Part shown: positions 1,560-33,312 of the stretch, piece after piece
How the letters are laid out: each line of letters opens with the position of its first letter
How positions within the stretch are numbered: the stretch's first letter is position 1
Assembly (NCBI GenBank): GCA_044377775.1
Contig: JBILYL010000003.1
Location: 1-33,312 of the forward strand
Length of the DNA: 33,312 nt
Reading direction: 5' to 3'
From: Bacteroidia bacterium
GTDB taxonomy: Bacteria; Bacteroidota; Bacteroidia; 2-12-FULL-35-15
Made by a program: the position numbers and the translations under genes
The notes under the pieces: model-generated
Told to the model about the DNA's origin: nothing
The model's database searches: none
Seen by the model: only the letters and a program-made list of their open reading frames with translations

Positions 1560-1568
1560 GGTACAGTA

Positions 1569-4618: not shown

Positions 4619-4634
4619 TCAAAAAGTTTGTTGG

Positions 4635-4642
4635 CAAAGATA
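4635..4642 (-). promoter_or_regulatory. -7 promoter element (TATCTTTG) for lnt
   Basis: Exact TAnnTTTG followed by CC, 16 nt upstream of the lnt TTG. Confidence 0.65.
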
Positions 4643-4648
4643 ACAAAA

Positions 4649-5275: not shown

Positions 5276-5464
5276 AATAAAAACCGTTACTACTTGCATA
5301 TATTTTTTTACATTTAAGTAATTTAACTATCGAACTTCATACAATTGGCTAAAACAAATACTGAAAACTGGAAGACCTTATTATTATTTGAAAACAAAAA
5401 AATGATCTGGGGAAGTGAGGATGAGCGCTATTACATTTATTCCATTGAATTCAAAAAAGAAACT

Positions 5465-11644: not shown

Positions 11645-11652
11645 TATATTTG
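11645..11652 (+). promoter_or_regulatory. -7 promoter element (TATATTTG) for the methyltransferase-GT2-GT-C operon
   Basis: Exact TAnnTTTG followed by CA. It covers the ORF-track start at 11650, so the true start is probably the TTG at 11668. Confidence 0.65.
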
Positions 11653-11667
11653 CATAAATTATTCAGT

Positions 11668-13193: not shown

Positions 13194-14565
13194 GCTCCTC
13201 CTTCCGTTTTACATTTTACTCACACTCCTAACAATTTTCTGCACCCCGATTCCATTCTTTTGGGATGGAACCTTTTTCTCTGCACTGTCGGTTTACTTTT
13301 ATGAGAACGGGATGAATGGATACATTGCTCCGTTGCCAATCGACACAGGTGGTTTCCCATTGTTTTCAAGCTATTTAACGTTTGCTTGGAAACTTTTCGG
13401 AAAAACACTTACTGTTTCTCACCTTGCAATACTTCCATTTATATTCGGTATCGTATTTGAATTTTATAAACTTTCAAAACGATTCTTAAATGAAAAAACA
13501 ATTTTGTTCGCGTTGATCTTACTGATCATCGAACCGGTATTTATTACACAATCAATTTTAATGGGCTATGACATTTTGATCGCCTATTTCTTTTTGCTCT
13601 CGCTAAATTCACTTTACGAAAAAAAACAACTATTATTTTCAATTGCCCTGACATTGCTCTGTTTAATAAGCATACGCGGAATAATGCTGGCATCCGCTAT
13701 TTTCACGATCGATTTGGTTACACAACGGAAAATCAACCTTAAGTTTATCCGAAATTACACCCCTGCTGTTTTCATCTTATTAACCTGGTTTGTCTATCAC
13801 AAGACACAAACAGGCTGGTATTTATTTTCACCAACAAGAGAAAATAATGCAGAACAACTTTCCGGAGCTGGAATGGTCATCCGGCAATTCATCTATATAT
13901 TCTGGAAGACAATTGATCTTGGAAGAATCACCTTGTGGATAATTTTGGTCAGCTGCGGATTATATTTTCTAAAGAAAGATCGTTCAAATAAAACGAAAGA
14001 ACTACTACAACTGATCTTTATTCCATTAGTTGCAATGTCTTTATTCATGTTGTTGATAAGGAATCCGATCGGACATAAATATTTTTTGGTTGTATTTATA
14101 CTCTTAAATATCGGAGTTTGTCATTTGCTGGAACAAATTGATAACAGAAAAAAAAGAACGGTTTTGTATTGTCTGATCTCAATAAGTTTAATAGGAGGGA
14201 ATTTCATTACATATCCTCAACGGTATGGAAACGCTTGGGATTCATCACTAAAGATATTCCCCTACTTCAAATTAGAAAACGAAATGAACATCTATCTTTT
14301 ACAAAATAATATTGCTGACAAGCAGATAGGAACTCAATTTCCCCTTTCAGGCGATCTTAGGAATTCACACCTCTCCGATTCCTCTTATCAGTTCACCGAC
14401 ATTGAAAATAAACCAATTAACAATTTTCAGTATTTTCTGTATAGCAATATCATTAACACAAATAGAATAAATGACTTGAATAAAATAACGGAACAATGGA
14501 TAGTCGTAAAAAGGATGAAAAGCGGAACAATTGAACTTACGCTCTTTCAGAATCCGGACTTTTAG
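13180..14565 (+). CDS. Integral membrane GT-C fold glycosyltransferase (ArnT/GT39-like)
   Basis: About 10-12 hydrophobic segments, PFFWDG in the first outer loop, a P-L-F (HPPL-like) segment and a soluble C-terminal tail. It sits directly downstream of the GT2 donor synthase. Confidence 0.7.
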   Translation: MKNAKLLLPFYILLTLLTIFCTPIPFFWDGTFFSALSVYFYENGMNGYIAPLPIDTGGFPLFSSYLTFAWKLFGKTLTVSHLAILPFIFGIVFEFYKLSKRFLNEKTILFALILLIIEPVFITQSILMGYDILIAYFFLLSLNSLYEKKQLLFSIALTLLCLISIRGIMLASAIFTIDLVTQRKINLKFIRNYTPAVFILLTWFVYHKTQTGWYLFSPTRENNAEQLSGAGMVIRQFIYIFWKTIDLGRITLWIILVSCGLYFLKKDRSNKTKELLQLIFIPLVAMSLFMLLIRNPIGHKYFLVVFILLNIGVCHLLEQIDNRKKRTVLYCLISISLIGGNFITYPQRYGNAWDSSLKIFPYFKLENEMNIYLLQNNIADKQIGTQFPLSGDLRNSHLSDSSYQFTDIENKPINNFQYFLYSNIINTNRINDLNKITEQWIVVKRMKSGTIELTLFQNPDF

Positions 14566-15991
14566 ATCGTTTTAATTTTTTAAGCAAAGCATCTTTATCA
14601 ATGCAAAGCATGAAAATAGTATACAGAAAGGGCAACGCTACAACTTTGTAACGAACCATTGCACCGATTACAGGGGTTGTTAATCCGATAACAGCAAACT
14701 GAATAAGTGCAAAAAACAAAGCAAACAATACAACTTGTTTCTGCTGAAGATTTTTTTTATCAAAGAACAAAATCGCCAAAACCAGTATAAGCAGAAGCCA
14801 CATATTTTCTAGCCATGGAAGCAACTGTAAAACATTTTTAATCTTAAACAATGTCGGCTGGGTAAAAACACTAAAGATCGAACGAGGTACTTTTTTCACA
14901 ATCCCGCAAAAAGAAGGATCTGCTTTTTCGATCTCAATCACTAATTGAGCGGGTGAAATGATATAAAGCAATTTATAAAAAGCACTTTCTCCTGAACCGG
15001 AAACAAAAGTAGTATCCTGCATATTATCTAATTTCCAGGATAAAAAACTACTTCCTTTCTTGATTGAAAATATTGAATCAGACTGAGGAATCAGCACGTT
15101 AACGTTAGCGTATTCAATCCGAATAAAATTCTTGTCGTTCATCAAAAATATCCCGCCATGTGCTTCGCTGATGGCTTTTGATTGCTTATCAGCAATCAGC
15201 TTATATACATTGAATCGTTCACTTGTTTTTGAAAGCAGATGAAACAGGCCGGTAAATAAAAATAAAATCAATAAGAATTTCAAAAAATAATTCCGGGATG
15301 ATACTTTCGAGAGAATCCAGCCGATCAAAAGTAACGGCAAGAGCGCAGCAAGAATATAAATTTTAAGAAAAAACAATAGTAAAAGCAAAGCGACTACAAC
15401 AATTAACTTCTTAAGAGTAATATTTTTTTCCAGACCAAAGTCTGTCAGATAAACAATAAAGCCAACACAAAACATTGCGATTGTCTCTTTATAGATACCT
15501 GCCGTCCAGAATAGAACCGAAGGTATAAAGTATAATCCAACAATCAGCACATTTTTTTTTGAAGGGAAATATTTATAAAAAGATTTATAAAGCGCTGTTA
15601 ATCCGGCAAAAGAAAGGAAGCAAAAGAAAACTATATGAACAAAAATAGTGTTAAATGATAAAAAACGGATCAAAAAATTCAGATAAATAATTATCCTTGA
15701 ATTATTAAATAAGGTATCATCAATACTGGAATGCCATCCGGGAATATCTACAACGGTGGTGTTTCCTAAAAACCGGTCAAAAATTATATTACCGCTCTCG
15801 AAATAGAGATTAAAGTCGGAGTCGGTATAATAAAAAGTATATACTGCAAAAACACAAAGCCCTGCAATAATTTTCAAAACAAACAGTCCGGTCAACTGAA
15901 GTTTTGAAATAGCAGGAACATCAAAAAACTTCATTTTAAACATCAAAAAAATGAAGAAAACAGCATATAGAAGAGGCAAAATAATTTGCAT
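14537..15991 (-). CDS. Polytopic membrane protein, probable GT-C superfamily (Wzy/ligase-like) enzyme
   Basis: About 11 TM segments with YYTDSDFNLYF, PSVLFWTAGIYKE and GAMVRYK motifs, plus a large soluble loop. It overlaps the previous gene convergently by 29 bp. Confidence 0.55.
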   Translation of the reverse strand: MQIILPLLYAVFFIFLMFKMKFFDVPAISKLQLTGLFVLKIIAGLCVFAVYTFYYTDSDFNLYFESGNIIFDRFLGNTTVVDIPGWHSSIDDTLFNNSRIIIYLNFLIRFLSFNTIFVHIVFFCFLSFAGLTALYKSFYKYFPSKKNVLIVGLYFIPSVLFWTAGIYKETIAMFCVGFIVYLTDFGLEKNITLKKLIVVVALLLLLFFLKIYILAALLPLLLIGWILSKVSSRNYFLKFLLILFLFTGLFHLLSKTSERFNVYKLIADKQSKAISEAHGGIFLMNDKNFIRIEYANVNVLIPQSDSIFSIKKGSSFLSWKLDNMQDTTFVSGSGESAFYKLLYIISPAQLVIEIEKADPSFCGIVKKVPRSIFSVFTQPTLFKIKNVLQLLPWLENMWLLLILVLAILFFDKKNLQQKQVVLFALFFALIQFAVIGLTTPVIGAMVRYKVVALPFLYTIFMLCIDKDALLKKLKRSKSPDSERA

Positions 15992-20866: not shown

Positions 20867-21706
20867 TTAAGCCATTCTCTCTTTTTTCTTAATCACAAAG
20901 TAAGAAACAAAGATACTCGCTTCATACAAGAAATACAAGGGAAATGCAACCAGCAATTGGGAGGTAATATCAGGTGAAGGAGTAATAACACCGGCAACGA
21001 TCAGAATAATGACAACAGCATGTTTACGATATTTTCGCATAAATTGTGGTGACAGTAAACCGAATTTTGTAAGAAAAAAGACCAAAATAGGCAACTCAAA
21101 AATAAGTCCGGCAGAAAGGGTTAGTGTTGTAACAGTTGAGATATAAGAATCCATCGTAAAGTTATTCTCCACCATATTACTAACCTTATAATTCCCAAGA
21201 AAATTGATCATCAAAGGAGCAATTACAAAATAACTAAAGGCTACACCAATAACAAATAAAAGGGTTGCTGAAATGATAAAAAGAGACGATGCTTTTTTCT
21301 CTTTTTCCTTAAGAGCCGGTTTAATAAATTTCCAAACTTCCCAAAGAACATAAGGCGAACCAAGGATCAATCCACCTATAAAAGCGATCCACATTTGAGA
21401 TGTGAACTGATCGGCCAGACCAAGACTCTGAAGTTTAAATGTGTAATGCCCAAAGCATAAGTCATCTCCCAAATTAAGCATGTGACTCAGGCTACAGAAT
21501 GCTTTATACGTTGCAAAATCCTCTTTTAAGGGACCAAAAATGATTGTATCAAAAAGGAATTCTGGAAAGCAAAAAAGCACGACAGACAGCGTAACTACGA
21601 CTATTGCAGAACGGAACAAATGCCCGCGCAAAGCATCAATATGTCCCCAGAAGGACATTTCACCTGTGTTTGTACCTTGTTTATTTAAGAGTCCGAATAG
21701 TGCCAT
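20867..21706 (-). CDS. tatC: Twin-arginine translocase subunit TatC
   Basis: EMSFWGHIDALR, WKFIKPAL, FELP, KYRKHA, ITPSPD and LYEASI. Confidence 0.96.
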   Translation of the reverse strand: MALFGLLNKQGTNTGEMSFWGHIDALRGHLFRSAIVVVTLSVVLFCFPEFLFDTIIFGPLKEDFATYKAFCSLSHMLNLGDDLCFGHYTFKLQSLGLADQFTSQMWIAFIGGLILGSPYVLWEVWKFIKPALKEKEKKASSLFIISATLLFVIGVAFSYFVIAPLMINFLGNYKVSNMVENNFTMDSYISTVTTLTLSAGLIFELPILVFFLTKFGLLSPQFMRKYRKHAVVIILIVAGVITPSPDITSQLLVAFPLYFLYEASIFVSYFVIKKKERMA

Positions 21707-21716
21707 TTTTCAGCGG

Positions 21717-21724
21717 CAAAGTTA
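21717..21724 (-). promoter_or_regulatory. -7 promoter element (TAACTTTG) for the tatC-CMD-DUF5686-lptB run
   Basis: Exact TAnnTTTG followed by CC, 10 nt upstream of the tatC ATG. Confidence 0.7.
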
Positions 21725-21770
21725 ATATTATTTAGCTAGTCTGAATCTTATATATAGAAAGAAAAATATG

Positions 21771-21778
21771 TATTTTTG
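21771..21778 (+). promoter_or_regulatory. Candidate -7 element (TATTTTTG) for the TMTC-like gene
   Basis: Exact TAnnTTTG covering the ORF-track TTG start, which favours the ATG at 21821. Confidence 0.45.
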
Positions 21779-21820
21779 GGTATTAAAGACCTTAAATCTC
21801 GTTTAATGTTATTTTTTGAT

Positions 21821-24073
21821 ATGCAAAAACAATTCAAGTTTTACGTTTTAGCGACAATATCCCTACTATTATTGATTGGAGCATATTGGAACCATTTCGA
21901 TAACGAATTTCAGTTTGATGATGCCCATACGATCGTAAACAACAATGCGATCCGGAGCATAAAAAACATCCCTTCATTTTACACGGACGCCCGCACTACC
22001 AGCTCATTGCCGGCAAATCAGATTTACCGTCCAGGACTTACTACATTAAATGCCATTGATTATTGGATTGGCGGAAATACTGAACCTCAGCCACGTATCT
22101 TTCACATTTCTATTTTCATCAGTTATTTGTTTTTAGGCATTCTGCTCTATTTTTTATTTCTGAAATTGTTTAACGAAACGACCGACCACAAATGGAACAA
22201 ATATTTTGCCCTCTTTGGAGCCTCCTTCTATAGTTTACATGCTGCAAATGCCGAAACGGTGAATTACATTATCGCCCGCTCGGATTCCTTTTCAACATTA
22301 ATGATCGTTCTATCGCTGGTCATCTTCCTATACAAACCAAACTGGAGAAAAAAATGCATCTATCTCCTACCCGTTACGATCGGCTTCTTTGTAAAAGAAC
22401 CCACAATAATGGTTGCTCCACTTTTACTGATATATCTTTTGTTGTATGTAAAAGAACTATCCATTATAAAGTGGTTCTCCATCAATGGAATTAAAGAAGG
22501 CATATCTGCTGCAATTTCTTTACTCCCTTTATTTATTCTGGTAGTACTTTTATTTCTTCTTTCTAAATCGATGGCCTCGGATACGTTTATTCCCGGTGCC
22601 GGTTCAGGCTATGAGTATATTTTAGCACAGCCTTTTGTGATCATACATTATTTCAACAACTTCCTGTTGCCACTTAATCTATCAGCTGATACAGATTGGC
22701 TCCCTATCGCTCGATTTTACGATGACAGGGTTATTGCAGGAACATTATTTATTATTGCAATGATTGCTGCAGCAGTATATTGTTCTCGAAAAAAAAAACT
22801 GTTACCTATCGCCTTTGGAATTTCATGGTTTCTATTAGCATTACTACCAACATCCATCATGCCTTTGTCTGAAGTATTAAACGACCACCGTACATTTTTT
22901 CCATATATCGGATTAGTGATTGCATCAGCTTGGTCTTTAGGCCTAATCGCAATTAAGTTGCAGGCAAAAATTGAAGCACATTTTATCTATAAATCAGTAT
23001 TTATAATTCTACCACTGCTAATACTTTGTGGTCATGCTTATGGAACTCGACAAAGAAATAAAGTTTGGAGTACCGGTGAAACTCTTTGGGCAGATGCTGT
23101 TCAGAAAAGTCCGAATAATGGACGTGCACTAATGAATTACGGTCTTGCAAAAATGAAAAAACAAGACTACCCGGCAGCACTTGATTGTTTTGAACGCGCT
23201 TTAAAAATACTTCCCAACTACTCCTATCTCTTCATAAATATGGGGGTTTTAAAAAGCAGTATGGGAAATGCTGCTGAAGCAGAAACAAATTTCAAACAAG
23301 CATTATTTTTGAATCCTGGAAATCCGGAAAGCTATTACTTTTATTCCAACTGGCTTCGTTCACAAGGCAGGTTTAAAGAAGCATTTGACTTAGCAGAAAA
23401 AGGATTAAAAATCAGTCCGGATCACAGCGGCAACAAAACACTTTTTTCTGAATTATCAACTTTGGCTGCAAGTGAAAAGGACCAGTTACAGATTGCTGAA
23501 CAAACAGCAAAAGAAAAACCGAGTGTCGACAGCTATATTGCATTGAGCTTACTGTATTACCAAAAACAGCAATATGAAAAATGTATAGAAGCAGCGAATG
23601 AAGCAATAAAAATAAAACCGGATTGTATAGAAGCATACAATAATATTTGTTCGGCACAAAATATTATAGGCAATTACGATGAAGCAATTTTAGCGGGGCA
23701 GCAAGCATTAAAAATTGATCCTGAGTATGAGTTAGCAAAAAACAACTTAGCGGATGGTATAGCAAGAAAAGAAAAGGTACATCCGGTTTTAGCACTTATA
23801 AAAAAGGATCCATCAGAAGCAAACTATATCAATTTGAGTTTAGTTTATTATAATTTAGGCAGTTTTCAGAAATGTGCTGATGCTGCAGAACTTGCAATAA
23901 AAGCGAATCCAAATTCTGATGCAGCATACAACAACATCTGTTCAGCATATAATATGCTTAAACTTTGGGACAAAGCCATTATTGCAGGAGAGAAAGGATT
24001 GACCATTAATCCAAACAATCAGCTTTTAAAAAACAATTTAGAAGTTTCAAGAAGAGGAAAGGCCGGTAATTAA
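21821..24073 (+). CDS. TMTC-like membrane glycosyltransferase (GT-C membrane domain plus C-terminal TPRs)
   Basis: NEFQFDDAHTI (acidic DD pair after TM1), YRPG, LH...ETVNYIIARS, KE, P.NLSAD, DHRTFFP and RN.VW.....LW.DAV.KSP...R, followed by multiple TPRs. Confidence 0.8.
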   Translation: MQKQFKFYVLATISLLLLIGAYWNHFDNEFQFDDAHTIVNNNAIRSIKNIPSFYTDARTTSSLPANQIYRPGLTTLNAIDYWIGGNTEPQPRIFHISIFISYLFLGILLYFLFLKLFNETTDHKWNKYFALFGASFYSLHAANAETVNYIIARSDSFSTLMIVLSLVIFLYKPNWRKKCIYLLPVTIGFFVKEPTIMVAPLLLIYLLLYVKELSIIKWFSINGIKEGISAAISLLPLFILVVLLFLLSKSMASDTFIPGAGSGYEYILAQPFVIIHYFNNFLLPLNLSADTDWLPIARFYDDRVIAGTLFIIAMIAAAVYCSRKKKLLPIAFGISWFLLALLPTSIMPLSEVLNDHRTFFPYIGLVIASAWSLGLIAIKLQAKIEAHFIYKSVFIILPLLILCGHAYGTRQRNKVWSTGETLWADAVQKSPNNGRALMNYGLAKMKKQDYPAALDCFERALKILPNYSYLFINMGVLKSSMGNAAEAETNFKQALFLNPGNPESYYFYSNWLRSQGRFKEAFDLAEKGLKISPDHSGNKTLFSELSTLAASEKDQLQIAEQTAKEKPSVDSYIALSLLYYQKQQYEKCIEAANEAIKIKPDCIEAYNNICSAQNIIGNYDEAILAGQQALKIDPEYELAKNNLADGIARKEKVHPVLALIKKDPSEANYINLSLVYYNLGSFQKCADAAELAIKANPNSDAAYNNICSAYNMLKLWDKAIIAGEKGLTINPNNQLLKNNLEVSRRGKAGN
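23513..24050 (+). repeat. Internal tandem duplication of a TPR module (period 291 nt, 97 aa)
   Basis: PS..sYI.LSL.YY.....KC..AA..AIK..P....AYNNICSA.N....D.AI.AG...L.I.P...L.KNNL occurs twice. GCATACAAyAAyATyTGTTCrGCA is found at 23633 and 23924. Confidence 0.85.
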
Positions 24074-24873
24074 TTTTTCTTGCGGATCACAATAATGTGA
24101 TGAAGTGCAAAAACAGAATTAAAAGGCATAAAAATAAATTCTAAAAATTTAATGACAGGTGAAAAGAAAGAGGGAAGAATCTGCCTGAAATTCAGTCCAC
24201 CGGATAACACATAGCGCATATAATTATTTAGCGGTTTCTGAACTACAATTTCTAAATTGGGATATCGTTCTTCAAATTTTTTCTTGTCACGGATAAAAAC
24301 AATATATGAAAGCGCCTGATTTGCTCCATTCATAAAACCAAGAGATTCATTGACCCAATCTTTTTGAGTCATATCAAATGTTTCGGTGTCAAATATTTTT
24401 TTGTAGAACCGTTTTGCAATCGTTCCGTAATATGGATCTATCAAAACACATCCACATCCTTTTACCAAAACACGATCCAGTTCATTAAAAAACAGATCAG
24501 GATTCGGAAAATGATGAAAGCAATTAATACCATAAATTGCGCGAACACAGTTTTGCTCGAATGGCATATTTTGAGCATCAACAACCATATCCAGATTCTC
24601 TGCTTTTTTTATATCGGTAGAAATGATCTCAGGATATTTTTTTTTAAAGAAACTAACCCCTGCACCTATTTCAACACGTTTAGCTTTAGAATCAGAAAAG
24701 TATTTTTCATCCAACCGGATACATTCATCATAAAACTCAGAGAACACTTCACGCATCATTGGTTTTTCATACAACACTTTGCTGTGAATTTCCAACATCT
24801 TCTCACTATCAGGATCAACTCCGATCAAGCGGGGCTCTTGCAGCCACGTTCTTAACTTTTTAAATAAACTCAT
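24070..24873 (-). CDS. Class I SAM-dependent methyltransferase
   Basis: VEIGAGVS, ISTDI, VDAQNMPF, CFHHF and RVL..G....LIDP. Confidence 0.85.
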   Translation of the reverse strand: MSLFKKLRTWLQEPRLIGVDPDSEKMLEIHSKVLYEKPMMREVFSEFYDECIRLDEKYFSDSKAKRVEIGAGVSFFKKKYPEIISTDIKKAENLDMVVDAQNMPFEQNCVRAIYGINCFHHFPNPDLFFNELDRVLVKGCGCVLIDPYYGTIAKRFYKKIFDTETFDMTQKDWVNESLGFMNGANQALSYIVFIRDKKKFEERYPNLEIVVQKPLNNYMRYVLSGGLNFRQILPSFFSPVIKFLEFIFMPFNSVFALHHIIVIRKKN

Positions 24874-24890
24874 ATTGAACAGATTCTTTT

Positions 24891-25733
24891 TTAATATGCA
24901 TCAAAATCAAAGGCATTAAAACTGACATTCTTAATATCCAATCTCCTGTTTTTATTTGAGAGATCCTTAAAAATAAAATTCAAAGGAGAAGGACGTAAAT
25001 TTTTCGGAACAGAAAAATACAATGAACGACTCCAATTGATTGACTGATCGATACCAATAAATAATTTAATGGGACGAAATCCAATAGTGACTTTATTATC
25101 GGGTAAGGGTGAAACAAGCGAAATATCAAGCAAGATTGCTTCAACGCCAGGTTTATCCGTTGCCGAATAAATAATATTCTTTACTATTTTATAGTTGTTT
25201 GCAGGGTTAGACAATCGCCATACCAGAGATTGATTGTTCCAAATCCTGACAAAACAAGCATCTGAATCGATATCAGAATGAACAATTTTTCCAAAACCAA
25301 TTTTTGCTTCCAATTTGCCGACCCACTGAAAACCTAACTTATTGACAAATCCATGAGTGCTGTTCGCATTCGCAACCCCAATTACAAATCCATATCCTTT
25401 TTCAGTAGCTGCATTATAACTAAGTTCAGCAAGCGATGTAAATAATTTATTCCCCTGATGATCGGGATGAGTAGCGGTATTTAAGGAAAGTAATCCTTTT
25501 TCATCTACACCAAACAACAATGCAGTAAAAGGGATCAATGCATAATGAGCCGCCAGCACGCCATTTTTATAGGCATTAAATCCGACAACACTTCCTTCAG
25601 GATTATTTTTATATTGCCACTTAATAAACGCTTCAGAATACTTATCTGCCATTGGAAAAACAAGACGCAATAAGTCTGCAATTTCTTTAATTGCTTTATC
25701 ATCAGTACCAACAGGTGAAAATTCGTAACTCAT
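24891..25733 (-). CDS. GNAT family N-acyltransferase
   Basis: WQYKNNPEG, acyl-CoA motif A (TATHPDHQGNKLF) and GVANANS.HGF. Confidence 0.85.
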   Translation of the reverse strand: MSYEFSPVGTDDKAIKEIADLLRLVFPMADKYSEAFIKWQYKNNPEGSVVGFNAYKNGVLAAHYALIPFTALLFGVDEKGLLSLNTATHPDHQGNKLFTSLAELSYNAATEKGYGFVIGVANANSTHGFVNKLGFQWVGKLEAKIGFGKIVHSDIDSDACFVRIWNNQSLVWRLSNPANNYKIVKNIIYSATDKPGVEAILLDISLVSPLPDNKVTIGFRPIKLFIGIDQSINWSRSLYFSVPKNLRPSPLNFIFKDLSNKNRRLDIKNVSFNAFDFDAY

Positions 25734-26596
25734 TATTTCAAAACCGATTGTAAGCTTTCACGATAATTCAGGATATTGACCTCTAATTTTTCCAAGTCAA
25801 CCTTTGTTTCAAATTTAAGCAAATGTTTCAAGCCAAGAACACTTTCAGAAGAAACCCGGAGATGCAGCCCCATAAACTCTGCCGTTTTACAAATAAAAAA
25901 CAATAGCGGCAAAGGAAAATAAATGAACCGAAGCTTTTTATTCAGCTGCTGTGCGATCTCCTGATAAAAAAGTTTCATAGTTATCGCTTCAGGTTCTGCA
26001 ATATAAAATAAGCCGTGAATATTTCTTTCAAACGCCAACTCAATGATCAGACACAGATCATCAATATGAATAGTTTGTATTGACTGCATACCACCACCGA
26101 TCAAAGGAAAAAAGGAAGTATTTCTTATCGTTTTTATCAATTCTGCCGCAAGTCCTTTTTTACCGATCACGAAACCCGGTTTCAAAACAACATCTGTTGC
26201 TAAGTCAAACAAATGCTCACACTCCAGTTTTGTTTTACCATAATGTGACTCTGCAAGTTTATGAGCAGAAAAAGAAGAAAGAAATAGTGGTGTAATATTT
26301 TTTTTACGACAGATTGCTATAAGTTTTTTTGTACCGGAAATGTTTATTGCATCGGCATCGTTATTTTCGTCAAATCGTAAATATGCGCAGTGCACTAAAT
26401 AATCAACCGATTCGAATGCATTTTCATCGAGTTGTGTTTCAAGACTATATTCAACATATTCAACATCCCTCACTATTTCTTTGGGGATGTTCCGCACAAA
26501 TGCTTTCACATTCCAACCATTCACAAAAAAATAATGAACCAGATGCTCTCCGATAAATCCATTCGCTCCCGTGATTATAATTGTAGGCTTAATCAT
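25733..26596 (-). CDS. NAD-dependent epimerase/dehydratase (extended/atypical SDR)
   Basis: ITGANGFIG, LVHCA, FLSS, YGKTK (YxxxK) and IHIDDL. Confidence 0.88.
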   Translation of the reverse strand: MIKPTIIITGANGFIGEHLVHYFFVNGWNVKAFVRNIPKEIVRDVEYVEYSLETQLDENAFESVDYLVHCAYLRFDENNDADAINISGTKKLIAICRKKNITPLFLSSFSAHKLAESHYGKTKLECEHLFDLATDVVLKPGFVIGKKGLAAELIKTIRNTSFFPLIGGGMQSIQTIHIDDLCLIIELAFERNIHGLFYIAEPEAITMKLFYQEIAQQLNKKLRFIYFPLPLLFFICKTAEFMGLHLRVSSESVLGLKHLLKFETKVDLEKLEVNILNYRESLQSVLK

Positions 26597-28205
26597 TTTT
26601 TAAAACATTTTTTGCAACGTTATATGCATTAGCCATCAATGTAAATGTTAATCCTTTTGCCGGCAAATAATTAAATCCGGAACCATCAGCTACAAACACA
26701 TTTTTCGTTCCGGCCAATTTCCCATTCGGGTAAATTGTATATTCATCGCCCCGATCATTGAAGGGCAATGTTCCCGCATAATGAATACTACCGCCATGGG
26801 GAGTATGAACTGTTTTTAATGGCTGACATCCTAAAGCTCTGAGAGCACTTTTAATTTTCTGTTCACGCAAACTATTTGTACTTATTTCCTGATCCGATAA
26901 AATATATTGTCCGGTTAAAACATCTCCTGTATAAGCGTCAGCATGCTTTTTCATGCGGATGAATTTAGTAGCAGAACCTTTTTCAGGATGATGAATTCCT
27001 GCAATAGTAAAAGAAGATTGCAAATATTGCATGATGATACGGGCATCCGCAAAATTCAATGGCGTTTCTTTAATAAGTTTAAACAACAATAAAGAACGAT
27101 AGCTAAACAGTGCAGCCATTCCTACATCATAATTGTTTTTATTCTCATCGAGGTACAAAACCAATTGCCCTAAACTGGTTTTCTTTTGCTCTGTCTCTTT
27201 CCCTAACATGCGCCATTGAATACAAGGAATATAGCAATATGGATTACAAATTACAGGCAATTGTTCTTTTTTATAATCAAAAGAGCGCATCACGATTCTT
27301 GCTGTACCAAGTACTCCAGGAGATAAAATTAGTTTTTTGCAACTGAAAATTTGTTCCTCATTTGTATCTGTTCTTTTAACAATTACATCTATGCCATTTT
27401 CATGTTCACGAAATTTCAGAACCAGGCAATTTTTATGATAAACAAAATTTGTTTTTTTATTCAACTGCTCAATCGTCATCCAGGAGCGGTATGCAGATTG
27501 ATCTTTGTCCGACCAAAAATCCATGTCCTTGTAATCTACAGCAGAGCGATTATCCTTATCCTTTGTAAGCAAAGCCAATGCAGACCTCCCAAGAAAAACA
27601 CCTTTTTTATTCAAGGATTTTTTTTGATTGTTGTAAGAAGAGTAAACTCCAGATAAATTTTGTTCCAAGTCCGAAACAGGCATTATATTTTGGAGATCAC
27701 CTAAACAGTATGGGGCACCATCATCCCTCGTTCCGGAAACACCAATATGAGATGCAACTGCTTCATAGGCCTTTTTCATTTCAGCTTCACGGAGCCCGAT
27801 TGCCTGCAATTCCGGATTCGAAAACACATAACACCCTAAGCCCCAACCACCACCCAATCCACCCTTCGCCATACTTTCCATCGGCTTAAAAGAATCCGAT
27901 TCAAAGGGAATCAATTTATCGGTTAGTTGCGTTAAAAAATTTCTGGGAGGCGTAAGCTGAGATCCTACTTTAGTTGATTCCCATGGAATACCTTCGTAAT
28001 TATTTCCCAAAAAATAGCGATGCTGATCGGATTCTTCTTTGCGAATAGAAATAAAATCTTTAGCCGGAATAATTTGCTTATACGTTTCATCCTCAACACC
28101 AACATCCAGAAGAGCGACAACAACACCTTCTTCAACGAGTGAATGCGCAGCAATTGCACCTGTAGCTCCTGAGCCAACAACAATGTAATCGTAGTTTAAT
28201 TGCAT
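26589..28205 (-). CDS. GMC-family flavin oxidoreductase
   Basis: DYIVVGSGATG FAD motif, GGLGGGWG, C-terminal SIHYAGTLP, VADGS and P....TFTLMANA. No signal peptide. Confidence 0.82.
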   Translation of the reverse strand: MQLNYDYIVVGSGATGAIAAHSLVEEGVVVALLDVGVEDETYKQIIPAKDFISIRKEESDQHRYFLGNNYEGIPWESTKVGSQLTPPRNFLTQLTDKLIPFESDSFKPMESMAKGGLGGGWGLGCYVFSNPELQAIGLREAEMKKAYEAVASHIGVSGTRDDGAPYCLGDLQNIMPVSDLEQNLSGVYSSYNNQKKSLNKKGVFLGRSALALLTKDKDNRSAVDYKDMDFWSDKDQSAYRSWMTIEQLNKKTNFVYHKNCLVLKFREHENGIDVIVKRTDTNEEQIFSCKKLILSPGVLGTARIVMRSFDYKKEQLPVICNPYCYIPCIQWRMLGKETEQKKTSLGQLVLYLDENKNNYDVGMAALFSYRSLLLFKLIKETPLNFADARIIMQYLQSSFTIAGIHHPEKGSATKFIRMKKHADAYTGDVLTGQYILSDQEISTNSLREQKIKSALRALGCQPLKTVHTPHGGSIHYAGTLPFNDRGDEYTIYPNGKLAGTKNVFVADGSGFNYLPAKGLTFTLMANAYNVAKNVLKND

Positions 28206-28606
28206 TTTCGTTTGATGGTATTAACAATAAATATTCCAACCAATGCTCTCATAATAGCACGAACTCCTACAAGACCTATTTTAAACAAATAGACGATCGA
28301 ATATTTTCGTGAAAGAAAGTAAGAAGTATAATTTGGGGATGCTTCTAATATAGCCAGCATTGTAAACAGTTTTCTACGAACAGCGCTGGTTGGTTCTTGA
28401 ACTGCCAATGCAGCATCGATGCAGGCCATGTGCCATTTATTTTTAAGCATCTTATTCCAAAGCAATTGCTCATATTCCGAAAATGAAATATTTAATTTCA
28501 GCATCGCATCGGCATATTTTTTTTTTTCAGTTTCCTGAATTGAACTATTTAGGAGATACAGGCCGATCTGTTCTGCTTCAAAAATATGATTGCTATTTGT
28601 TTCCAT
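28196..28606 (-). CDS. Hypothetical protein (136 aa), translationally coupled to its neighbours
   Basis: The ORF overlaps both the deacetylase stop and the GMC start. It contains IDAALA...RRKL.TMLAILEASP.Y and an amphipathic/hydrophobic C-terminus. The start is set at METNS (28606). Confidence 0.75.
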   Translation of the reverse strand: METNSNHIFEAEQIGLYLLNSSIQETEKKKYADAMLKLNISFSEYEQLLWNKMLKNKWHMACIDAALAVQEPTSAVRRKLFTMLAILEASPNYTSYFLSRKYSIVYLFKIGLVGVRAIMRALVGIFIVNTIKRKCN

Positions 28607-29438
28607 TAAACGCGGATGCATATTCTCTATAAGTAATAATTTTACAATCGAATGTATTCATAATATCTTCTAATCGTTCAAACATATTTTTACGATTAAA
28701 ATACATGAGTCGGTTATAAAACCAACTGTTATTTATTCCAGGATGCATAAAAGACTCTTGCTCTGTATCAATATCATAAGGATGAAAATAACTTGTAACA
28801 GCTAATCCTTTAGAAAAATGTTCCAAGAATCCTTTTTTAATAAGCGGCATAGGTAAAACTCTAAAATATACTCCTCCGGAAAAAGGAACATTCAAAAAAC
28901 GGCTACCTCTCACACTAACAGGAATTTCCAACAGTTTATCGCTGACTTTTCTAGGACTTTCTCCAAATGCTTCCCATCCGAACAATGGATTTTTTGCCGG
29001 AAGAACAGAGCTGGAATAGGTAAAACCTAATTCTGTCAGTATATCAAATGCCCAATCAGTTTTTTCTGTAACAGAAAATATTGGTGCACGGTATCCAACA
29101 ATATCAGTTGCACCGGCCTTGGATAAATTTTCAAGATTTTGCAAAAGATCCTTTTTAAAAAGTTCTTTCGTCTGAGATGAAACCGGGATATGTTTATCTG
29201 AATGACAAGCGATTTCGTGTCCTTCGGAAATGATAGATCTGATCAAAGAAGGGTATTGCTCAGGAATATCGCCAACTGTAAAAAAAGTTGCTTTGGATTT
29301 ATGTTTGTCCAGAAAGCGAAGATATTGTTCTGTCAGTTCCTCCACACGTGGTTTGAAATGTAAACCATCAGACATCCGCAAACGGACATCCTCAAGATCG
29401 ATGCTGAACAAAAATGTATTTTTCGTTGGCTTCGCCAT
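28593..29438 (-). CDS. CE4/NodB polysaccharide deacetylase (PEP-CTERM-locus/DUF3473-like subfamily)
   Basis: FSIDLED, KATFFTVG, GHEIACHSDKH, GYRAPIFS, YSSS, GGVYFRVLP and YFHPYDID.EQ. No signal peptide. Confidence 0.9.
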   Translation of the reverse strand: MAKPTKNTFLFSIDLEDVRLRMSDGLHFKPRVEELTEQYLRFLDKHKSKATFFTVGDIPEQYPSLIRSIISEGHEIACHSDKHIPVSSQTKELFKKDLLQNLENLSKAGATDIVGYRAPIFSVTEKTDWAFDILTELGFTYSSSVLPAKNPLFGWEAFGESPRKVSDKLLEIPVSVRGSRFLNVPFSGGVYFRVLPMPLIKKGFLEHFSKGLAVTSYFHPYDIDTEQESFMHPGINNSWFYNRLMYFNRKNMFERLEDIMNTFDCKIITYREYASAFNGNK

Positions 29439-29519
29439 TCTAGTGTGAAGTAATTTTTGTTATTTTGCTTTAATTTAGCGACAAATTACGAAAAAACCAG
29501 CACAAAAAAACAATAATAA

Positions 29520-30203
29520 ATGATAATCATTACCGGAATCACAGGAGGAATTGGAAATTTTTTATTCAATAAATTTTCACAATCCGGGGAACAACTTATT
29601 GGCACTTATCATTTGAATAAACCGGAAGGAAAACAATATGACAATTGCGTGCAATTGGATATTACAAATTATTCACAGGTAGAACAATTTATTTCTTCGA
29701 TCCGGTCAACAGCCAAAGAAATAACACTTATTAACTGTGCGGGAATAAGCGCAAATGCTTTTGCTCACAAATCAGATATTGACGAATGGAAGAATGTGAT
29801 CAATGTAAATCTAACGGGCACTTTTCATTTGATTCGGGCAACATTGCCATTAATGCGCGAACAGCAATTTGGCCGCATCATTAATTTATCCTCCATTGTC
29901 TCACAAACCGGTGTAATGGGCACCAGCGCATATGCAGCTTCCAAAGCAGGAATTAACGGAATGATAAAAAGTATTGCCCTTGAAAATGCACAAAAGGGAA
30001 TAACAATTAATAATATCAATCTGGGCTATTTTAAAGTTGGAATGATCGATACTGTCCCGAAAGAAATTCAGGATATAATCAAATCTAAAATAGCATCCAA
30101 TGAATTTGGAGAACCTGAGAATATCCATTCCACAATTCAATACATACGTAATACATCTTACCTGAATGGAGCATGCTTAGATCTGAATGGAGGATTGGTA
30201 TAG
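29520..30203 (+). CDS. Classical SDR, FabG/acetoacetyl-CoA-reductase-like
   Basis: ITGITGGIG, LINCAGI, VNLTG, GRIINLSS, YAASK and LGYF. Confidence 0.88.
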   Translation: MIIITGITGGIGNFLFNKFSQSGEQLIGTYHLNKPEGKQYDNCVQLDITNYSQVEQFISSIRSTAKEITLINCAGISANAFAHKSDIDEWKNVINVNLTGTFHLIRATLPLMREQQFGRIINLSSIVSQTGVMGTSAYAASKAGINGMIKSIALENAQKGITINNINLGYFKVGMIDTVPKEIQDIIKSKIASNEFGEPENIHSTIQYIRNTSYLNGACLDLNGGLV

Positions 30204-30286: not shown

Positions 30287-30697
30287 AAATTGATTGTACC
30301 CCTATACAATCATTTTTATTGAATACCTGTAAGACTACTCCTAGAAAACAGATACTCAGGGCCAACCGTTCAGTCTCTCTCCTTACTGAACAAGTAGTAT
30401 CTTAGTAAATAATTATATGTTTTATAGGATTTCGTTTGAAGTGTATTTTCATGATTCCGTCCATATTATAAATCGATTCTTATATTCGTTAACGAAGAAT
30501 ATATGGTAAATGAGATTTTTTAGATAAAAGGAGCCTTTTTTACGGAGAACGACAATATGGATGCTGAATATGGAAAAAGATGAGCTTAACCTAATATTTT
30601 GAATAATAAACAGATTCATGTCAGGAAAACAAAACCATTTTATTATTTTAGCGTACAAATATGAACAATTATTGTATTCTAAGTCACAAATAATCAC

Positions 30698-31240
30698 ATG
30701 TACGGCATTGTAAACAAAGCAATTCAGGGTCTGGTAACAGAAAATTACGGACATGAATCCTGGGAAGAAATAAAAAAAAGAAGCGGTGTTTCTGTCGAAG
30801 CATTTCTGAGTAACGAACCCTATGCTGATAAGACAACATTTGACCTGGCATTTGCCACTTCAGAATATTTAAAAATTGACTTGAAGGATGTACTTATCTC
30901 TTTCGGGGAATATTGGGTCCTAAAGACAGGACAAGAGAGTTATGGATCACTGATGAAAGCCGGGGGAGATAATCTGAAGGAATTCCTGATAAACCTTCCG
31001 AACTTTCACAGCAGGGTGATGCTGATTTACCCCAACCTTACGCCACCAGAATTTAAAATTTCTAACATTGAAAACGCTGCTCTGCATGTTCATTATTTTT
31101 CAATGAGAAACGGTCTTCAATACTTCATGTTCGGGTTACTTCAGGGCTTGGGAAAAATGTACAAAATACCAACAGAGATATCCATAATTGAATCTAAATC
31201 GGATGGTGCAGACCATGATGTATTTTGTGTAAAATGGTAA
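30698..31240 (+). CDS. Stand-alone H-NOX (heme NO-binding) protein, sGC-beta/Nostoc type
   Basis: MYGIVNKAI N-terminus, FGEYW, proximal His104 (NLPNFH), YPNLTPPEF and the YxSxR motif (Y133-S135-R137). Confidence 0.95.
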   Translation: MYGIVNKAIQGLVTENYGHESWEEIKKRSGVSVEAFLSNEPYADKTTFDLAFATSEYLKIDLKDVLISFGEYWVLKTGQESYGSLMKAGGDNLKEFLINLPNFHSRVMLIYPNLTPPEFKISNIENAALHVHYFSMRNGLQYFMFGLLQGLGKMYKIPTEISIIESKSDGADHDVFCVKW

Positions 31241-31244: not shown

Positions 31245-33312
31245 TTGAATAAAAACGATAACATATCCTTTGATCACGATAAAATAGAAATCATATTTCC
31301 ATTCTATTTTGTATTCGATAAGTCATTAAAAATAATCTCATCCGGGAAAAGTCTGAGTAAGATATTTCCTAATGTTATTAATTCTAATTTCGAAGAGTCA
31401 TTTTTATTTAAAAGACCCTTTAGTATTTCTTACTCCATTACTTCTATTAGTGAATATACAAATCAGATCATAATCCTTGCTTCAAAAAAAAATCCTGAAA
31501 TAATATTAAGAGGACAAATACTGAACTTAGAAAATGAGAAGCTGATCTTTATCGGAAGCCCATGGCTGACCTCACCCGAAGATCTTTCCAAACTGAACCT
31601 CAACATTCCAGACTTTGCAATTCATGATGCAACTACTGACATGTTACAACTTCTAAAAAACAAGGAAATAATGTCCATAGATATTCTTTCACTTGTTGAA
31701 AGTCTTAAAGAACAAAAAAGTGAATTAAAAATTTCTGAAGACGAATTAAAATATAGCAACAACAGATTTTCTGTTCTTATTCAAAACATGCAAAGCGGAA
31801 TACTTTTAGAGAGCACTGAAAGAAAGGTAATTCTGACGAATAAGATCTTTTGTGAATTCTTTCATATTCCGGCACAACCTGAACAACTGATTGGATACGA
31901 TTGCATAACAGCTGCAAGAGATTCAAAAACATTGTTTACTGATTCTGAGCATTTTATTGATAGAATTGATGAAATACTGACTGAGAAAAAACTAGTGCAA
32001 AATGAAGAACTTCACATGATGGATGGTACTTTTCTTGAGCGTGATTTTGTACCCATATTCTCCGAAAATCAATATCATGGACATTTATGGATCTATAGAA
32101 ATATAACAGAGAGAAAGAAAAATGAACATGAACTTATATATGCTACAGAACAAGCGATTATAAGCAAAAAAACCAAGGAACAGTTTCTTGCGAATATGAG
32201 TCATGAATTGCGAAACCCAATTAACATAATTACTGGCGTAACGGGTTTAATATTCGACACGGATCTTTCAGAAAAGCAAAATGAATATTTAGGGATTATT
32301 AAAACTGCTTCCGAGAACCTATTGGCATTGGTGAATGATATATTGGATTTTGAAAAAATTCAAGCAAAAAAAATAAAATTTCATAATGCCCCATTTGACC
32401 TCCGAAAATGCATTAACGAAGTGTATTTGTCTATGAAGTTTATTGCAGCAAACAAAAACATTTCTCTTACAGTTGAAATTGATGATTTCCAACCAACACA
32501 TTATGTTTCGGGGGATTCACTTCGTCTCAAGCAAATTTTATTTAACCTCATCAACAATGCCATAAAATTCACCGAGAGAGGAGCGGTAAAATTGTCGGTA
32601 ACCCTTGAAGAAACGAGTGGAAAACAAAAACGAATAAAATTTAAAGTTCAGGATACAGGCATCGGCATCTCAAATGAAGATCTAAAAACGATTTTTGACC
32701 GGTATGTTCAGGTAATAAGCCCGTCCAGCAACCAACCCAAAGGAAGCGGGCTAGGACTGACTATTGTAAAAAATCTTGTTGAGCTTCAAAATGGAACAAT
32801 TGAAGTAAAAAGCACAATCAATGTTGGATCAACATTCAGTGTTACCATTCCTTATCAGATTATAGAACACTTGAATACAAAACAGAAAGAAAAGAAAATT
32901 GAATCATTTGACCTTTCAGGTAAAAACATTCTTATTGTTGAAGATGATAAAATAAATCAGATGATCATCACAAAAATGCTTGAAAAACATGGAGCAACTT
33001 CTGAAACAGCGGATAATGGCAAGATAGCCTTGGAAAAATTAAATATAAACAGATATCACATTATTTTATTAGACTTACAAATGCCTGTTATGGATGGCTA
33101 CACAACAGCGGAACAAATAAGGAAATCAAAAAATTCAAACCATTCAACCATTCCAATTATTGCTATTACCGCAAATATATTGTCCGGAGAAAAAGAAAAA
33201 TGTATGGAGGCCGGGATGAACGACTACTTGAGCAAACCTTTCATGGAAATAGATTTAATCAAAAAAGTAAATGAACTTAGCAATCGCTCCACTTATGAAG
33301 AAACGAATTTAG
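31245..33312 (+). CDS. Hybrid sensor histidine kinase HNOBA(H-NOXA)-PAS-HisKA-HATPase-REC, 3'-truncated; absent from the ORF track
   Basis: Manual translation from the TTG at 31245 stays open to the window end (689 codons). HNOBA motifs: IFPFYFVFDKSL, KRP, LRGQ, IGSPW, HDATTD. The PAS ends RNITERK. H-box FLANMSHELRNP (His codon 32202), then NLINNAIKFT, DTGIG and GSGLGL. REC motifs: ILIVEDD, LLDLQMPVMDG (Asp codon 33072), ITAN, SKPF. Confidence 0.93.
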   Translation, partial: MNKNDNISFDHDKIEIIFPFYFVFDKSLKIISSGKSLSKIFPNVINSNFEESFLFKRPFSISYSITSISEYTNQIIILASKKNPEIILRGQILNLENEKLIFIGSPWLTSPEDLSKLNLNIPDFAIHDATTDMLQLLKNKEIMSIDILSLVESLKEQKSELKISEDELKYSNNRFSVLIQNMQSGILLESTERKVILTNKIFCEFFHIPAQPEQLIGYDCITAARDSKTLFTDSEHFIDRIDEILTEKKLVQNEELHMMDGTFLERDFVPIFSENQYHGHLWIYRNITERKKNEHELIYATEQAIISKKTKEQFLANMSHELRNPINIITGVTGLIFDTDLSEKQNEYLGIIKTASENLLALVNDILDFEKIQAKKIKFHNAPFDLRKCINEVYLSMKFIAANKNISLTVEIDDFQPTHYVSGDSLRLKQILFNLINNAIKFTERGAVKLSVTLEETSGKQKRIKFKVQDTGIGISNEDLKTIFDRYVQVISPSSNQPKGSGLGLTIVKNLVELQNGTIEVKSTINVGSTFSVTIPYQIIEHLNTKQKEKKIESFDLSGKNILIVEDDKINQMIITKMLEKHGATSETADNGKIALEKLNINRYHIILLDLQMPVMDGYTTAEQIRKSKNSNHSTIPIIAITANILSGEKEKCMEAGMNDYLSKPFMEIDLIKKVNELSNRSTYEETNL

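Follow-up and report, generated by a model that had tools for sequence, protein, structure and literature searches.

What do the bacterial membrane glycosyltransferases of the GT-C type that carry tetratricopeptide repeats (TPR), which look like the human TMTC proteins, transfer, and to what? A cluster of eight genes raises this question at positions 21821-30203 of a 33,312-nucleotide stretch of DNA from a Bacteroidia bacterium (assembly GCA_044377775.1, contig JBILYL010000003.1, positions 1 to 33,312 of the forward strand; the whole stretch is hereafter called the window). The gene for a predicted GT-C/TPR protein converges there on a tightly coupled run of six genes, which encode a CE4 de-N-acetylase, a 136-aa protein of an unnamed family, a GMC-like flavoprotein, a short-chain dehydrogenase/reductase (SDR), a GNAT-fold acyltransferase and an S-adenosylmethionine (SAM)-dependent methyltransferase; a FabG-like SDR gene is transcribed divergently from the operon start. 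The original prediction for this locus was that the six-gene operon remodels a polyprenyl-phosphate sugar, which a TMTC-like enzyme then transfers to proteins. In our analysis the cluster appears, with somewhat more confidence than doubt, to edit a sugar on a membrane lipid carrier and to pass it to a membrane glycosyltransferase acting outside the cytoplasm, and we lean towards a lipid-linked monosaccharide glycosylation pathway of which it would be the part responsible for tailoring and transfer. Carrier-level sugar editing that feeds a GT-C enzyme is a known type of pathway, and the enzyme trio at the centre of this one has no described function.

The arrangement of the cluster is more than chance, because it recurs in related loci of several phyla. 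An alignment of 12 homologues of the GMC-like flavoprotein (A1) was used as the query for a genome scan, which yielded at least 80 loci (L001-L080). The core set comprises the 52 loci (L001-L052) with full-length orthologues of the flavoprotein (42-84% identity), and another 28 (L053-L080), with distant N-terminal matches only, served as a rough control. The loci were analysed by tblastn with the window proteins, clustering of open reading frames (ORFs), Pfam, and family hidden Markov models (HMMs) over six-frame translations. Pfam was applied to representatives of the clusters and, up to 4.2 kb from the GMC gene, to 147 neighbours outside any cluster, so that the scan covered ORFs of 110-900 aa lying at most 4.2 kb from the GMC gene and, beyond these limits, ORFs that belong to clusters of at least three loci.

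The conserved core in the 52 loci consists of the 136-aa protein, the GMC-like flavoprotein and the SDR. The SDR was detected by tblastn in 49 of them, and the family HMMs detected the 136-aa protein in 42, a short PpgS/GacI-like GT2 glycosyltransferase in 31, a GacJ-type DUF2304 protein in 24 and the GT-C domain of the window's family in 21, while none of the five was found in any control locus (0/28 each). Other GT-C-type membrane proteins, or fragments at contig ends, were identified in eight further loci, and GtrA in three more (L038, L039 and L044). A GT87 gene directly follows the SDR gene in L023, L052 carries DUF2079, PMT_2-type proteins with TPR occur in L011, L012 and L017, and a PMT_2-type protein was also found in L044. 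In the acidobacterial L011, a methyltransferase domain is fused to the GT2 (7973-9559, 529 aa), whose gene lies upstream of the 136-aa gene, and the SDR is followed by three transmembrane (TM) proteins with TPR, of which one matches PMT_2 weakly. The core trio is kept in records of Bacteroidota, Acidobacteriota, Verrucomicrobiota and Vulcanimicrobiota/Eremiobacterota, and GT-C-type neighbours appear in every major clade of the flavoprotein tree. Three loci (L039, L044 and L034) are labelled Candidatus Saccharibacteria or Enterobacteriaceae and their flavoproteins nest among those of Bacteroidota on the tree; these bin labels may be wrong.

The usual gene order in Bacteroidota starts with KdsD, GT2 and DUF2304 in the forward direction, followed in some loci by a reversed FabG-like gene and a forward CE4 gene, then by the genes for the 136-aa protein, the flavoprotein and the SDR, in some loci by GNAT and by either a forward methyltransferase or a reversed carbamoyltransferase gene, and ends with a reversed GT-C/TPR gene and a forward tatC. 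Among the ORFs scanned in the 52 loci, we found a single Wzx-like gene (L038), a single nucleotidyltransferase gene (L040), and no Wzy or O-antigen ligase. The homologous operons are thus not mainly Wzx/Wzy loci lacking a link to GT-C genes, and the linkage to GT2, GtrA and TMTC-like genes on which the original prediction depended is indeed seen. What could not be maintained is the idea of one fixed six-gene system: only the trio is core, whereas CE4 together with GNAT (8 loci), the methyltransferase (11) and a carbamoyltransferase (8) are accessory.

In the relatives, the cassette most likely starts with a polyprenyl-phosphate sugar synthase, the predicted sugar being an N-acetylhexosamine (HexNAc), because of the matches of its GT2 and because DUF2304 is the family of GacJ. 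The best NCBIfam match of the cassette GT2 is PpgS, the polyprenyl-phospho-N-acetylgalactosamine synthase (6e-26 to 7e-31), followed by AglJ, PgfS, Dol-P-hexose transferase and ArnC, all below the equivalog cut-offs, and its best PDB matches are DPMS, GtrB and ArnC. According to the available text of 10.1101/180810, GacJ binds and activates GacI, the N-acetylglucosamine (GlcNAc)-P-undecaprenol synthase, and Rv3632 does for PpgS what GacJ does for GacI.

DNA similarity between the window and L001, L002, L007 and L050 ends precisely at 30203, where the FabG-like gene has its stop. Because synteny breaks there, the usual GT2 and DUF2304 neighbours have been lost. The place of DUF2304, GT2 and KdsD is occupied by an H-NOX (HNOB) gene (30698-31240) and a gene for an HNOBA hybrid histidine kinase/response regulator (31245-33311), which runs off the window. 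The minus-strand ORF at 30449-30754 is of low complexity, has no homologue in the loci and is probably not a gene. As the original prediction had it, no nucleotidyltransferase, Wzx or soluble glycosyltransferase was found in 21821-30203 by the Pfam scan, and the window does hold a GtrB/ArnC-like GT2 at 12261-13193. The donor synthase of the operon must be elsewhere in the source genome, unless, as a speculation, this GT2 serves. It carries two C-terminal TM helices (PgfS 3.6e-45, ArnC 2e-41) and sits in a second glycosylation-type module (11650-15991), where it adjoins a methyltransferase gene (11650-12264), both on the plus strand, and is overlapped by a plus-strand gene for a 461-aa protein with about 8 TM segments (13180-14565), on which the gene for a 484-aa protein with about 10 TM segments converges (15991-14537, minus strand). 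Neither of the two membrane proteins had a Pfam match. The GT2 could belong to a Gtr-like three-component system or be the missing donor synthase of the operon.

The GMC-like flavoprotein (26589-28205, minus strand) is the proposed sugar-hydroxyl oxidase of the core. It bears the flavin adenine dinucleotide (FAD)-binding motif GSGATG at residue 11, and its H475 and N526 are invariant in A1. The GMC assignment is a weakly founded one, since its basis is the FAD motif near the N-terminus together with weak profile matches. GMC_oxred_C matched with an E-value of 7.9e-4 and 20.4 bits, below the Pfam cut-off of 24.6, and the PDB profile matches (E 2e-6 to 1e-4) were GMC sugar oxidases only, namely cellobiose dehydrogenase, pyranose oxidases and 6'''-hydroxyparomomycin C oxidase, cellobiose dehydrogenase and the pyranose oxidases being matched in both their N-terminal and their C-terminal part. 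The oxidase is not a member of the DprE1 family, as its Pfam, NCBIfam and PDB matches were to GMC-type and generic FAD-binding models only. At least 855 homologues were found, annotated as 'hypothetical' or generically.

The adjacent extended SDR ('epimerase'; 25733-26596, minus strand; Epimerase Pfam match 5.7e-12) is proposed to be the ketoreductase half of a core pair; the two genes overlap by 8 bp in the window, and the pairing of FAD oxidase and SDR is kept in 49 of the 52 loci. The SDR has GANGFIG at residue 10 and YGKTK at residue 119, and its nearest solved proteins, all weak matches (best PDB E 1.4e-5), are an NDUFA9-like protein, UDP-GlcNAc 4-epimerase and sterol 3-dehydrogenase. One candidate GMC-SDR fusion, an 821-aa ORF of L047, was rejected: in this high-GC DNA the SDR frame stays open further upstream, and GMC and SDR are two genes that share ATGA.

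The third member of the core, the 136-aa protein (28196-28606, minus strand; 141 aa if started at 28621), had no Pfam, NCBIfam or PDB match. It consists of a helical domain and a C-terminal hydrophobic helix bearing basic residues, and its gene, where present, always lies directly upstream of the GMC gene. The family comprises 1828 cluster representatives at E<=1e-3 (183 at E<=1e-30), nearly all of which stand alone at about 130 aa. Two fusions bear on its role. P0225 joins GT2, GtrA_DPMS_TM and the 136-aa family in one clean frame, which ties the family to a lipid-linked sugar synthase, and in P0238 the whole 136-aa domain is followed by the N-terminus of the flavoprotein. A GtrA-type membrane domain is taken here to have an even number of TM segments. 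As P0225 runs from a cytoplasmic GT2 through such a domain to the 136-aa domain, the latter should be cytoplasmic by this predicted topology. Its hydrophobic helix is more likely an interfacial anchor than membrane-spanning, since the flavoprotein follows the helix in P0238 and the helix contains one to three charged residues in 30 of 31 sequences. We infer from these features that the 136-aa protein is an adaptor, which would bring the oxidase to a membrane-bound substrate or synthase. A search for longer proteins with the 136-aa query found none, which is weak evidence, and the sole longer match of the GMC query was P0271 (1520 aa). This apparent fusion of the 136-aa family, GMC, SDR and methyltransferase was rejected, the middle of its GMC part being unmatched and Arg-rich; a frameshift or an error of assembly is the probable cause, and the record was counted for gene order only. 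P0271 and P0238, both derived from ENA and from a high-GC lineage, carry the 136-aa family and GMC as one polypeptide with the same junction, and the methyltransferase of P0271 is 52% identical to that of the window.

The GT-C/TPR protein is encoded on the plus strand from the ATG at 21821 to 24073 (750 aa). The frame is also opened by an upstream TTG at 21776, and the orthologues begin at the ATG. Its TPR Pfam matches cover residues ~430-720, and hydropathy gives nine clear TM segments, to which two weaker ones (~127-147 and 176-191) were added by reading the sequence, so the membrane domain (residues 1-405) is predicted to have about 11. The basic (Lys/Arg-rich) loops all lie on one side of the membrane, so that the N-terminus would be inside and the TPR domain outside, in the predicted periplasm. 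The FDD motif and TPR noted in the original prediction are both there: FDD occupies residues 32-34, with D33 and D34 in 22 of 23 aligned relatives, and further motifs (YRP 69-71, KEPT 192-195, DTDW 290-293 and DHR 355-357) are conserved in 18-23 of the 23. For the N-terminal domain, Pfam gave no match with the threshold relaxed to E<=10, and nothing relevant came out of the profile search of PDB. A family HMM built without the two paralogues of L037 matched them at 1.5e-18 (L037:1905-3803) and 4.6e-14, and L037:1905-3803 matches Pfam PMT_2 (1.5e-9, 38.7 bits against a cut-off of 26.1). Judging from these features, the protein is a putative GT-C-type glycosyltransferase.

The GT-C/TPR gene stands beside tatC in the window (20867-24073) and in nine loci (L002-L005, L021, L030, L035, L046 and L050). 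The two are divergent neighbours in the window and in most of these loci; one gene lies between them in L046, and in L030 the pair is several kb away from GMC-SDR. All are Bacteroidota and the adjacency may be inherited synteny, while a link of the transferase to exported proteins is worth a thought.

The remaining genes of the operon encode accessory modules. The CE4 de-N-acetylase with DUF3473 (28593-29438, minus strand; Polysacc_deac_1 1e-18, DUF3473 9.1e-22) and the 280-aa GNAT (24891-25733, minus strand; Acetyltransf_9 7.7e-10) appear to be partners. CE4 enzymes are defined by the motifs DxED, HSxxH and RxP, represented here by DLED at residue 14, HSDKH at 79 and RAP at 117. The best NCBIfam match of the CE4 protein is TIGR03006, the XrtA-system polysaccharide deacetylase (7e-53), but its 179.5 bits fall below the cut-off of 276.2, by which it is not a member, and no XrtA or PEP-CTERM gene was found in the window. 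GNAT occurs in eight of the 52 loci, seven with a whole CE4 and L004, whose CE4 ends at the contig edge, and on the GMC tree CE4 and GNAT were gained and lost together, with four changes each in an identical pattern. A PDB sequence search with GNAT gave no match. The methyltransferase (24070-24873, minus strand; Methyltransf_11 9.8e-7) has the SAM motif VEIGAG at residue 67; its best, weak NCBIfam matches are lipid O-methyltransferases, and the PDB sequence search returned nothing useful. It was found in 11 loci and a NodU-like carbamoyltransferase (1e-50) in eight, never together; L017 has a different methyltransferase beside its carbamoyltransferase. This pattern of gain and loss and the chemistries involved (de-N-acetylation, re-acylation, and methylation or carbamoylation) are consistent with genes that tailor an amino sugar. 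The SDR, CE4, GMC-like protein and methyltransferase all retain their cofactor and catalytic motifs. The absence of signal peptides from the tailoring enzymes, claimed from the start, agrees with our inspection of the N-termini and a hydropathy scan, the only two checks made, in which no N-terminal hydrophobic segment was seen. Three close relatives (L001, L002 and L004) have one more conserved ORF in the operon, of 206-210 aa, which separates the methyltransferase gene from that of GNAT or SDR; it had no Pfam or NCBIfam match, and the window lacks it.

The FabG/acetoacetyl-CoA-reductase-like SDR (29520-30203, plus strand; adh_short 1.6e-40, all NCBIfam matches below cut-offs) does lie divergently from the operon, across an A+T-rich spacer of 81 bp (29439-29519), but its membership in the system is doubtful. 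It is present in four of the 52 loci, all close relatives and two of them without CE4/GNAT, and is reduced to a remnant in L003. We regard it as lineage-specific and leave it out of the system. The possibility that it makes a 3-hydroxyacyl donor for GNAT was rejected on the same distribution.

From the gene content, the intact motifs, the conserved neighbourhoods and the fusions, all of which were read directly, we infer a carrier-bound substrate, its sugar, an oxidise-then-reduce chemistry, an order of steps, flipping and an acceptor as follows. A GT2 of the PpgS/GacI type with a DUF2304 or GtrA partner, whose gene adjoins the operon in relatives and is missing from the window, would load HexNAc onto polyprenyl phosphate at the cytoplasmic face. 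The 136-aa protein would hold the GMC-like flavoprotein at the membrane, where the flavoprotein would oxidise a hydroxyl of the sugar to a ketone and the SDR would reduce the ketone to the epimer, following the logic of DprE1/DprE2 with unrelated enzyme families; it is the neighbours and the fusions that suggest a polyprenyl-phosphate sugar as the substrate of this pair. In the window's lineage, the CE4 enzyme would then remove the N-acetyl group, GNAT add another acyl group and the methyltransferase a methyl group. After flipping, the GT-C enzyme would transfer the edited sugar to a periplasmic acceptor chosen with the TPR domain, a protein being the favoured candidate. The remodelling of a lipid-linked sugar thus gains from the link to synthase and GT-C genes in neighbourhoods and fusions, without the fixed set of six genes. 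It is attractive to go further and speculate, though only tentatively, that in at least four phyla the trio of an adaptor of a ~130-aa family, a GMC-like oxidase and an SDR epimerises polyprenyl-phosphate HexNAc as an independent invention of the DprE1/DprE2 strategy, and supplies general protein O-glycosylation by TMTC-like GT-C/TPR proteins, with lineage-specific N-reacylation, methylation or carbamoylation setting the final sugar.

To our knowledge, the editing of sugars on the carrier is known from few systems, namely DprE1/DprE2, ArnD/NaxD and one SDR epimerase for O-antigen side chains. DprE1/DprE2 is a leading tuberculosis drug target. The authors of a 2024 study state, in its available text, that no other epimerase acting in side-chain systems of this kind is known to them (PMC11127046), and our own search, with subscription journals outside its scope, found no description of the present cluster in the literature searched. 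The cluster points to a second solution for carrier-level editing, built from other enzyme families and widespread, given the sizes of the 136-aa and flavoprotein families. Through it, the donor and the acceptor of bacterial GT-C/TPR proteins also become open to testing, and it provides a working hypothesis for the DUF3473-type deacetylases and the unnamed 136-aa family.

Several observations weigh against the interpretation of the cluster as a carrier-level editing system with its own transferase. The GT-C/TPR protein of the window has no direct Pfam or PDB match for its membrane domain, its sole link to a named GT-C family (PMT_2) runs via one intermediate in L037, and hhalign of its N-terminal domain with PMT_2-positive neighbours gave a probability of 0.5%. 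Neither GT2, DUF2304 nor GtrA was found beside the operon in the window by tblastn. The presence of GT2 and that of GT-C do not co-vary significantly on the flavoprotein tree, and the independent CE4/GNAT contrasts (n=2, p 0.5) do not suffice for a test. The counts are inflated by shared descent, since the loci are for the most part metagenome bins of Bacteroidota, and the control loci are mostly of other phyla. Finally, ten of the 52 loci (L022-L028, L030, L040 and L048) have no match to the 136-aa family; most of these lack a nearby GT2 or GT-C, and the genes around most of them include those for cyclopropane-fatty-acid synthase, DUF1365 and amine oxidase. Because GMC-SDR loci without the 136-aa family sit near lipid-modifying genes, another lipid substrate is possible. 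On the tree, a sub-clade (L015, L022-L026, L028, L030 and L048) has GMC-SDR without a nearby GT2 and, except in L015, without the 136-aa gene. It adjoins a pseudouridine synthase gene, and several of its loci have genes for cyclopropane-fatty-acid synthase, DUF1365, amine oxidase and fatty-acid desaturase.

That the GMC-SDR pair and the small membrane-associated protein act on a non-sugar lipid (hydroxylated, hopanoid-like, or the carrier itself), the glycosylation genes being separate, seems to us the most improbable of the alternatives. The lipid-modifying genes of the sub-clade would agree with it, as would the lipid-facing weak relatives of the SDR (HpnA, OleD, SdmB, the NDUFA9-like subunit and sterol 3-dehydrogenase) and the weak matches of the methyltransferase to lipid O-methyltransferases. 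Nevertheless, the lipid-modifying genes in question stand on the opposite strand, beyond the pseudouridine synthase gene, in closely related bins; the PDB profile matches of the flavoprotein are all sugar oxidases, an amino sugar is suggested by the CE4, GNAT and NodU-type partners, and the 136-aa family is fused to a glycosyl-phosphate-lipid synthase. This last fusion, to GT2 and GtrA, also speaks against a second alternative, which we likewise regard as unlikely, namely that the enzymes of the operon act on a soluble nucleotide sugar or on a polysaccharide already completed, in the manner of exopolysaccharide or PEP-CTERM-type loci, and that the adjacency of GT-C reflects inherited synteny and no functional link. 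The 'epimerase' Pfam families of SDR act mostly on nucleotide sugars, the TIGR03006 match fits DUF3473 CE4 enzymes that occur in such loci, and GT-C is kept by tatC in nine loci, so synteny can be conserved without obvious shared function. However, the CE4 score lies below the family cut-off, the window has no XrtA/PEP-CTERM, Wzy, polymerase or export genes, and the SDR is far from canonical UDP-sugar epimerases, as its best PDB E-value indicates. In addition, the core travels with GT2/DUF2304/GtrA and GT-C-type genes in four phyla, against one locus with a Wzx-like gene and one with a nucleotidyltransferase.

A third alternative leaves the donor pathway as proposed and changes the acceptor: the GT-C enzyme would decorate a glycan or lipid (lipopolysaccharide core, lipid A, O antigen, capsule or peptidoglycan), as ArnT, GacL, Gtr and GT136 do, and its TPR domain would bind a polysaccharide or a partner protein. 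We take this as a real, though minority, possibility. In the available parts of two sources (PMC11127046, 10.1101/180810), most of the characterised bacterial users of polyprenyl-phosphate monosaccharides modify glycans or lipid A; a KdsD/KpsF gene of the 3-deoxy-D-manno-octulosonic acid pathway (2e-95) heads the cassette in nine loci; and TPRs can mediate protein-sugar contacts, according to the available text on TfpW (10.1101/2020.04.19.049825). On the other hand, TMTC and TfpW, the characterised types of GT-C with TPR found in the literature covered, both act on proteins, and L011, L017, L033 and L037 have two to three TPR-bearing paralogues, as expected for several classes of protein acceptors, neither point being decisive.

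The eight genes, their tight coupling and the convergent overlap described in the original prediction were all recovered at the same positions. The stops of the GT-C/TPR and methyltransferase genes share the 4-bp palindrome ttaa (24070-24073), and within the six-gene run neighbouring genes overlap by 14 (or 29), 10, 8 and 1 bp, with one gap of 17 bp. The window is low in GC, about 0.32-0.40, and has such hallmarks of Bacteroidota as a sorting domain of the type IX secretion system, PorV and DUF5686. Its first part (3-11547) is a type IX secretion neighbourhood, with a protein carrying a C-terminal sorting domain (3-536), a C25-peptidase protein of 1668 aa (5465-10471) and a weak PorV-like protein (10468-11547), and also holds genes for ferrochelatase, a pyridine-nucleotide disulphide oxidoreductase and an Lnt-like protein.

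How does the cluster compare with known systems? Its chemistries are those of Nod-factor tailoring, in which NodB, NodA, NodS and NodU de-N-acetylate, re-N-acylate, methylate and carbamoylate GlcNAc. The carbamoyltransferase of the relatives is NodU-like, but the substrates of the Nod enzymes are free chito-oligosaccharides, NodA does not belong to GNAT, and neither a lipid carrier nor a GT-C takes part. In the Arn pathway (ArnC/ArnD/ArnT) and in FlmF2/NaxD/FlmK of Francisella, undecaprenyl phosphate carries the sugar while it is deacylated, and a GT-C enzyme transfers it afterwards; ArnD is of CE4 type. In contrast to the proposed pathway, their acceptor is lipid A, they are not known to involve re-acylation, methylation or an oxidase/reductase on the carrier, and ArnT has no TPR domain.

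Eukaryotic TMTC1-4 move mannose from dolichyl-phosphate mannose (Dol-P-Man) to Ser/Thr of proteins. The likeness claimed for the window protein holds in part. The predicted topology, about 11 TM segments with the N-terminus inside and TPR outside, is that of TMTC (PMC7801869), and compared with the motifs in Table 4 of that source, M1 is present as DD in loop 1, M3 (RxD) as RSD at 153-155 and M5 as DW in loop 4. M2 has YRP with the mannose-contacting S-H-K replaced by A-N-Q; K-E of M4 in loop 3 is kept as K192 (23/23) and E193 (19/23) with the remainder different; M6 has PxxxxP instead of PxxP; and the loop-5 Arg of M7, R357 (21/23), stands in DHR instead of ER. Pfam TMTC_DUF1736, for the loop that links TM7 to TM8, did not match the window protein and matched 3 of 23 relatives below the cut-off (best E 0.025), so the resemblance is one of motifs. 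The donor also would differ, being probably an edited HexNAc on a bacterial polyprenol rather than Dol-P-Man.

The synthase end of the cassette resembles GacI/GacJ/GacL of Streptococcus pyogenes and PpgS/Rv3632 of Mycobacterium tuberculosis, in which, according to the available text, a short GT2 and a DUF2304 activator make polyprenyl-P-HexNAc for a GT-C enzyme (10.1101/180810). There the sugar is transferred unedited to a cell-wall glycan, whereas an oxidase/reductase pair and other tailoring genes stand between synthase and GT-C here, and the window itself lacks the GT2/DUF2304 pair. Similarly, of the components of the GtrB/GtrA/GT-C three-component type, the window has the GT-C gene, and GT2 and the small membrane partner are absent beside the operon. 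An auxiliary cytoplasmic SDR that changes a carrier-linked sugar, next to a synthase, a flippase and GT-C, is known from the pentofuranose systems, where ORF13 of Citrobacter youngae, an SDR epimerase, works on undecaprenyl-phosphate ribofuranose (PMC11127046, available text). Those three-component systems differ in that they use a single SDR epimerase, start from a pentose derived from phosphoribosyl pyrophosphate (PRPP), rely on a MATE flippase and modify O antigen through a GT136 that includes a carbohydrate-binding module.

By analogy, the closest characterised bacterial counterpart of the GT-C/TPR protein is TfpW of Pseudomonas aeruginosa, a GT-C protein with 11 TM segments and a periplasmic TPR domain that glycosylates pilin with D-arabinofuranose from a donor made by DprE1/DprE2 (10.1101/2020.04.19.049825, available text); in mycobacteria, DprE1/DprE2 serves Emb/Aft. 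In contrast to that pathway, the oxidase here is GMC-like and not DprE1-like; the entry enzyme in relatives is a PpgS/GacI-type GT2, which suggests HexNAc, instead of a PRPP-dependent phosphoribosyltransferase; the 136-aa partner and the deacetylase, acyltransferase and methyltransferase steps are additional; and no pilin gene lies near the window cluster. The TfpW pathway includes a small GtrA-like membrane protein encoded in its cluster, and GtrA likewise occurs in some relatives of the window operon, though not beside the operon itself. What the two would share, as proposed here from the genes, is the central step, in which the donor is epimerised on the polyprenyl-phosphate carrier by an FAD oxidase and an SDR (PMC11127046, available text) before a GT-C enzyme with periplasmic TPR takes it up.

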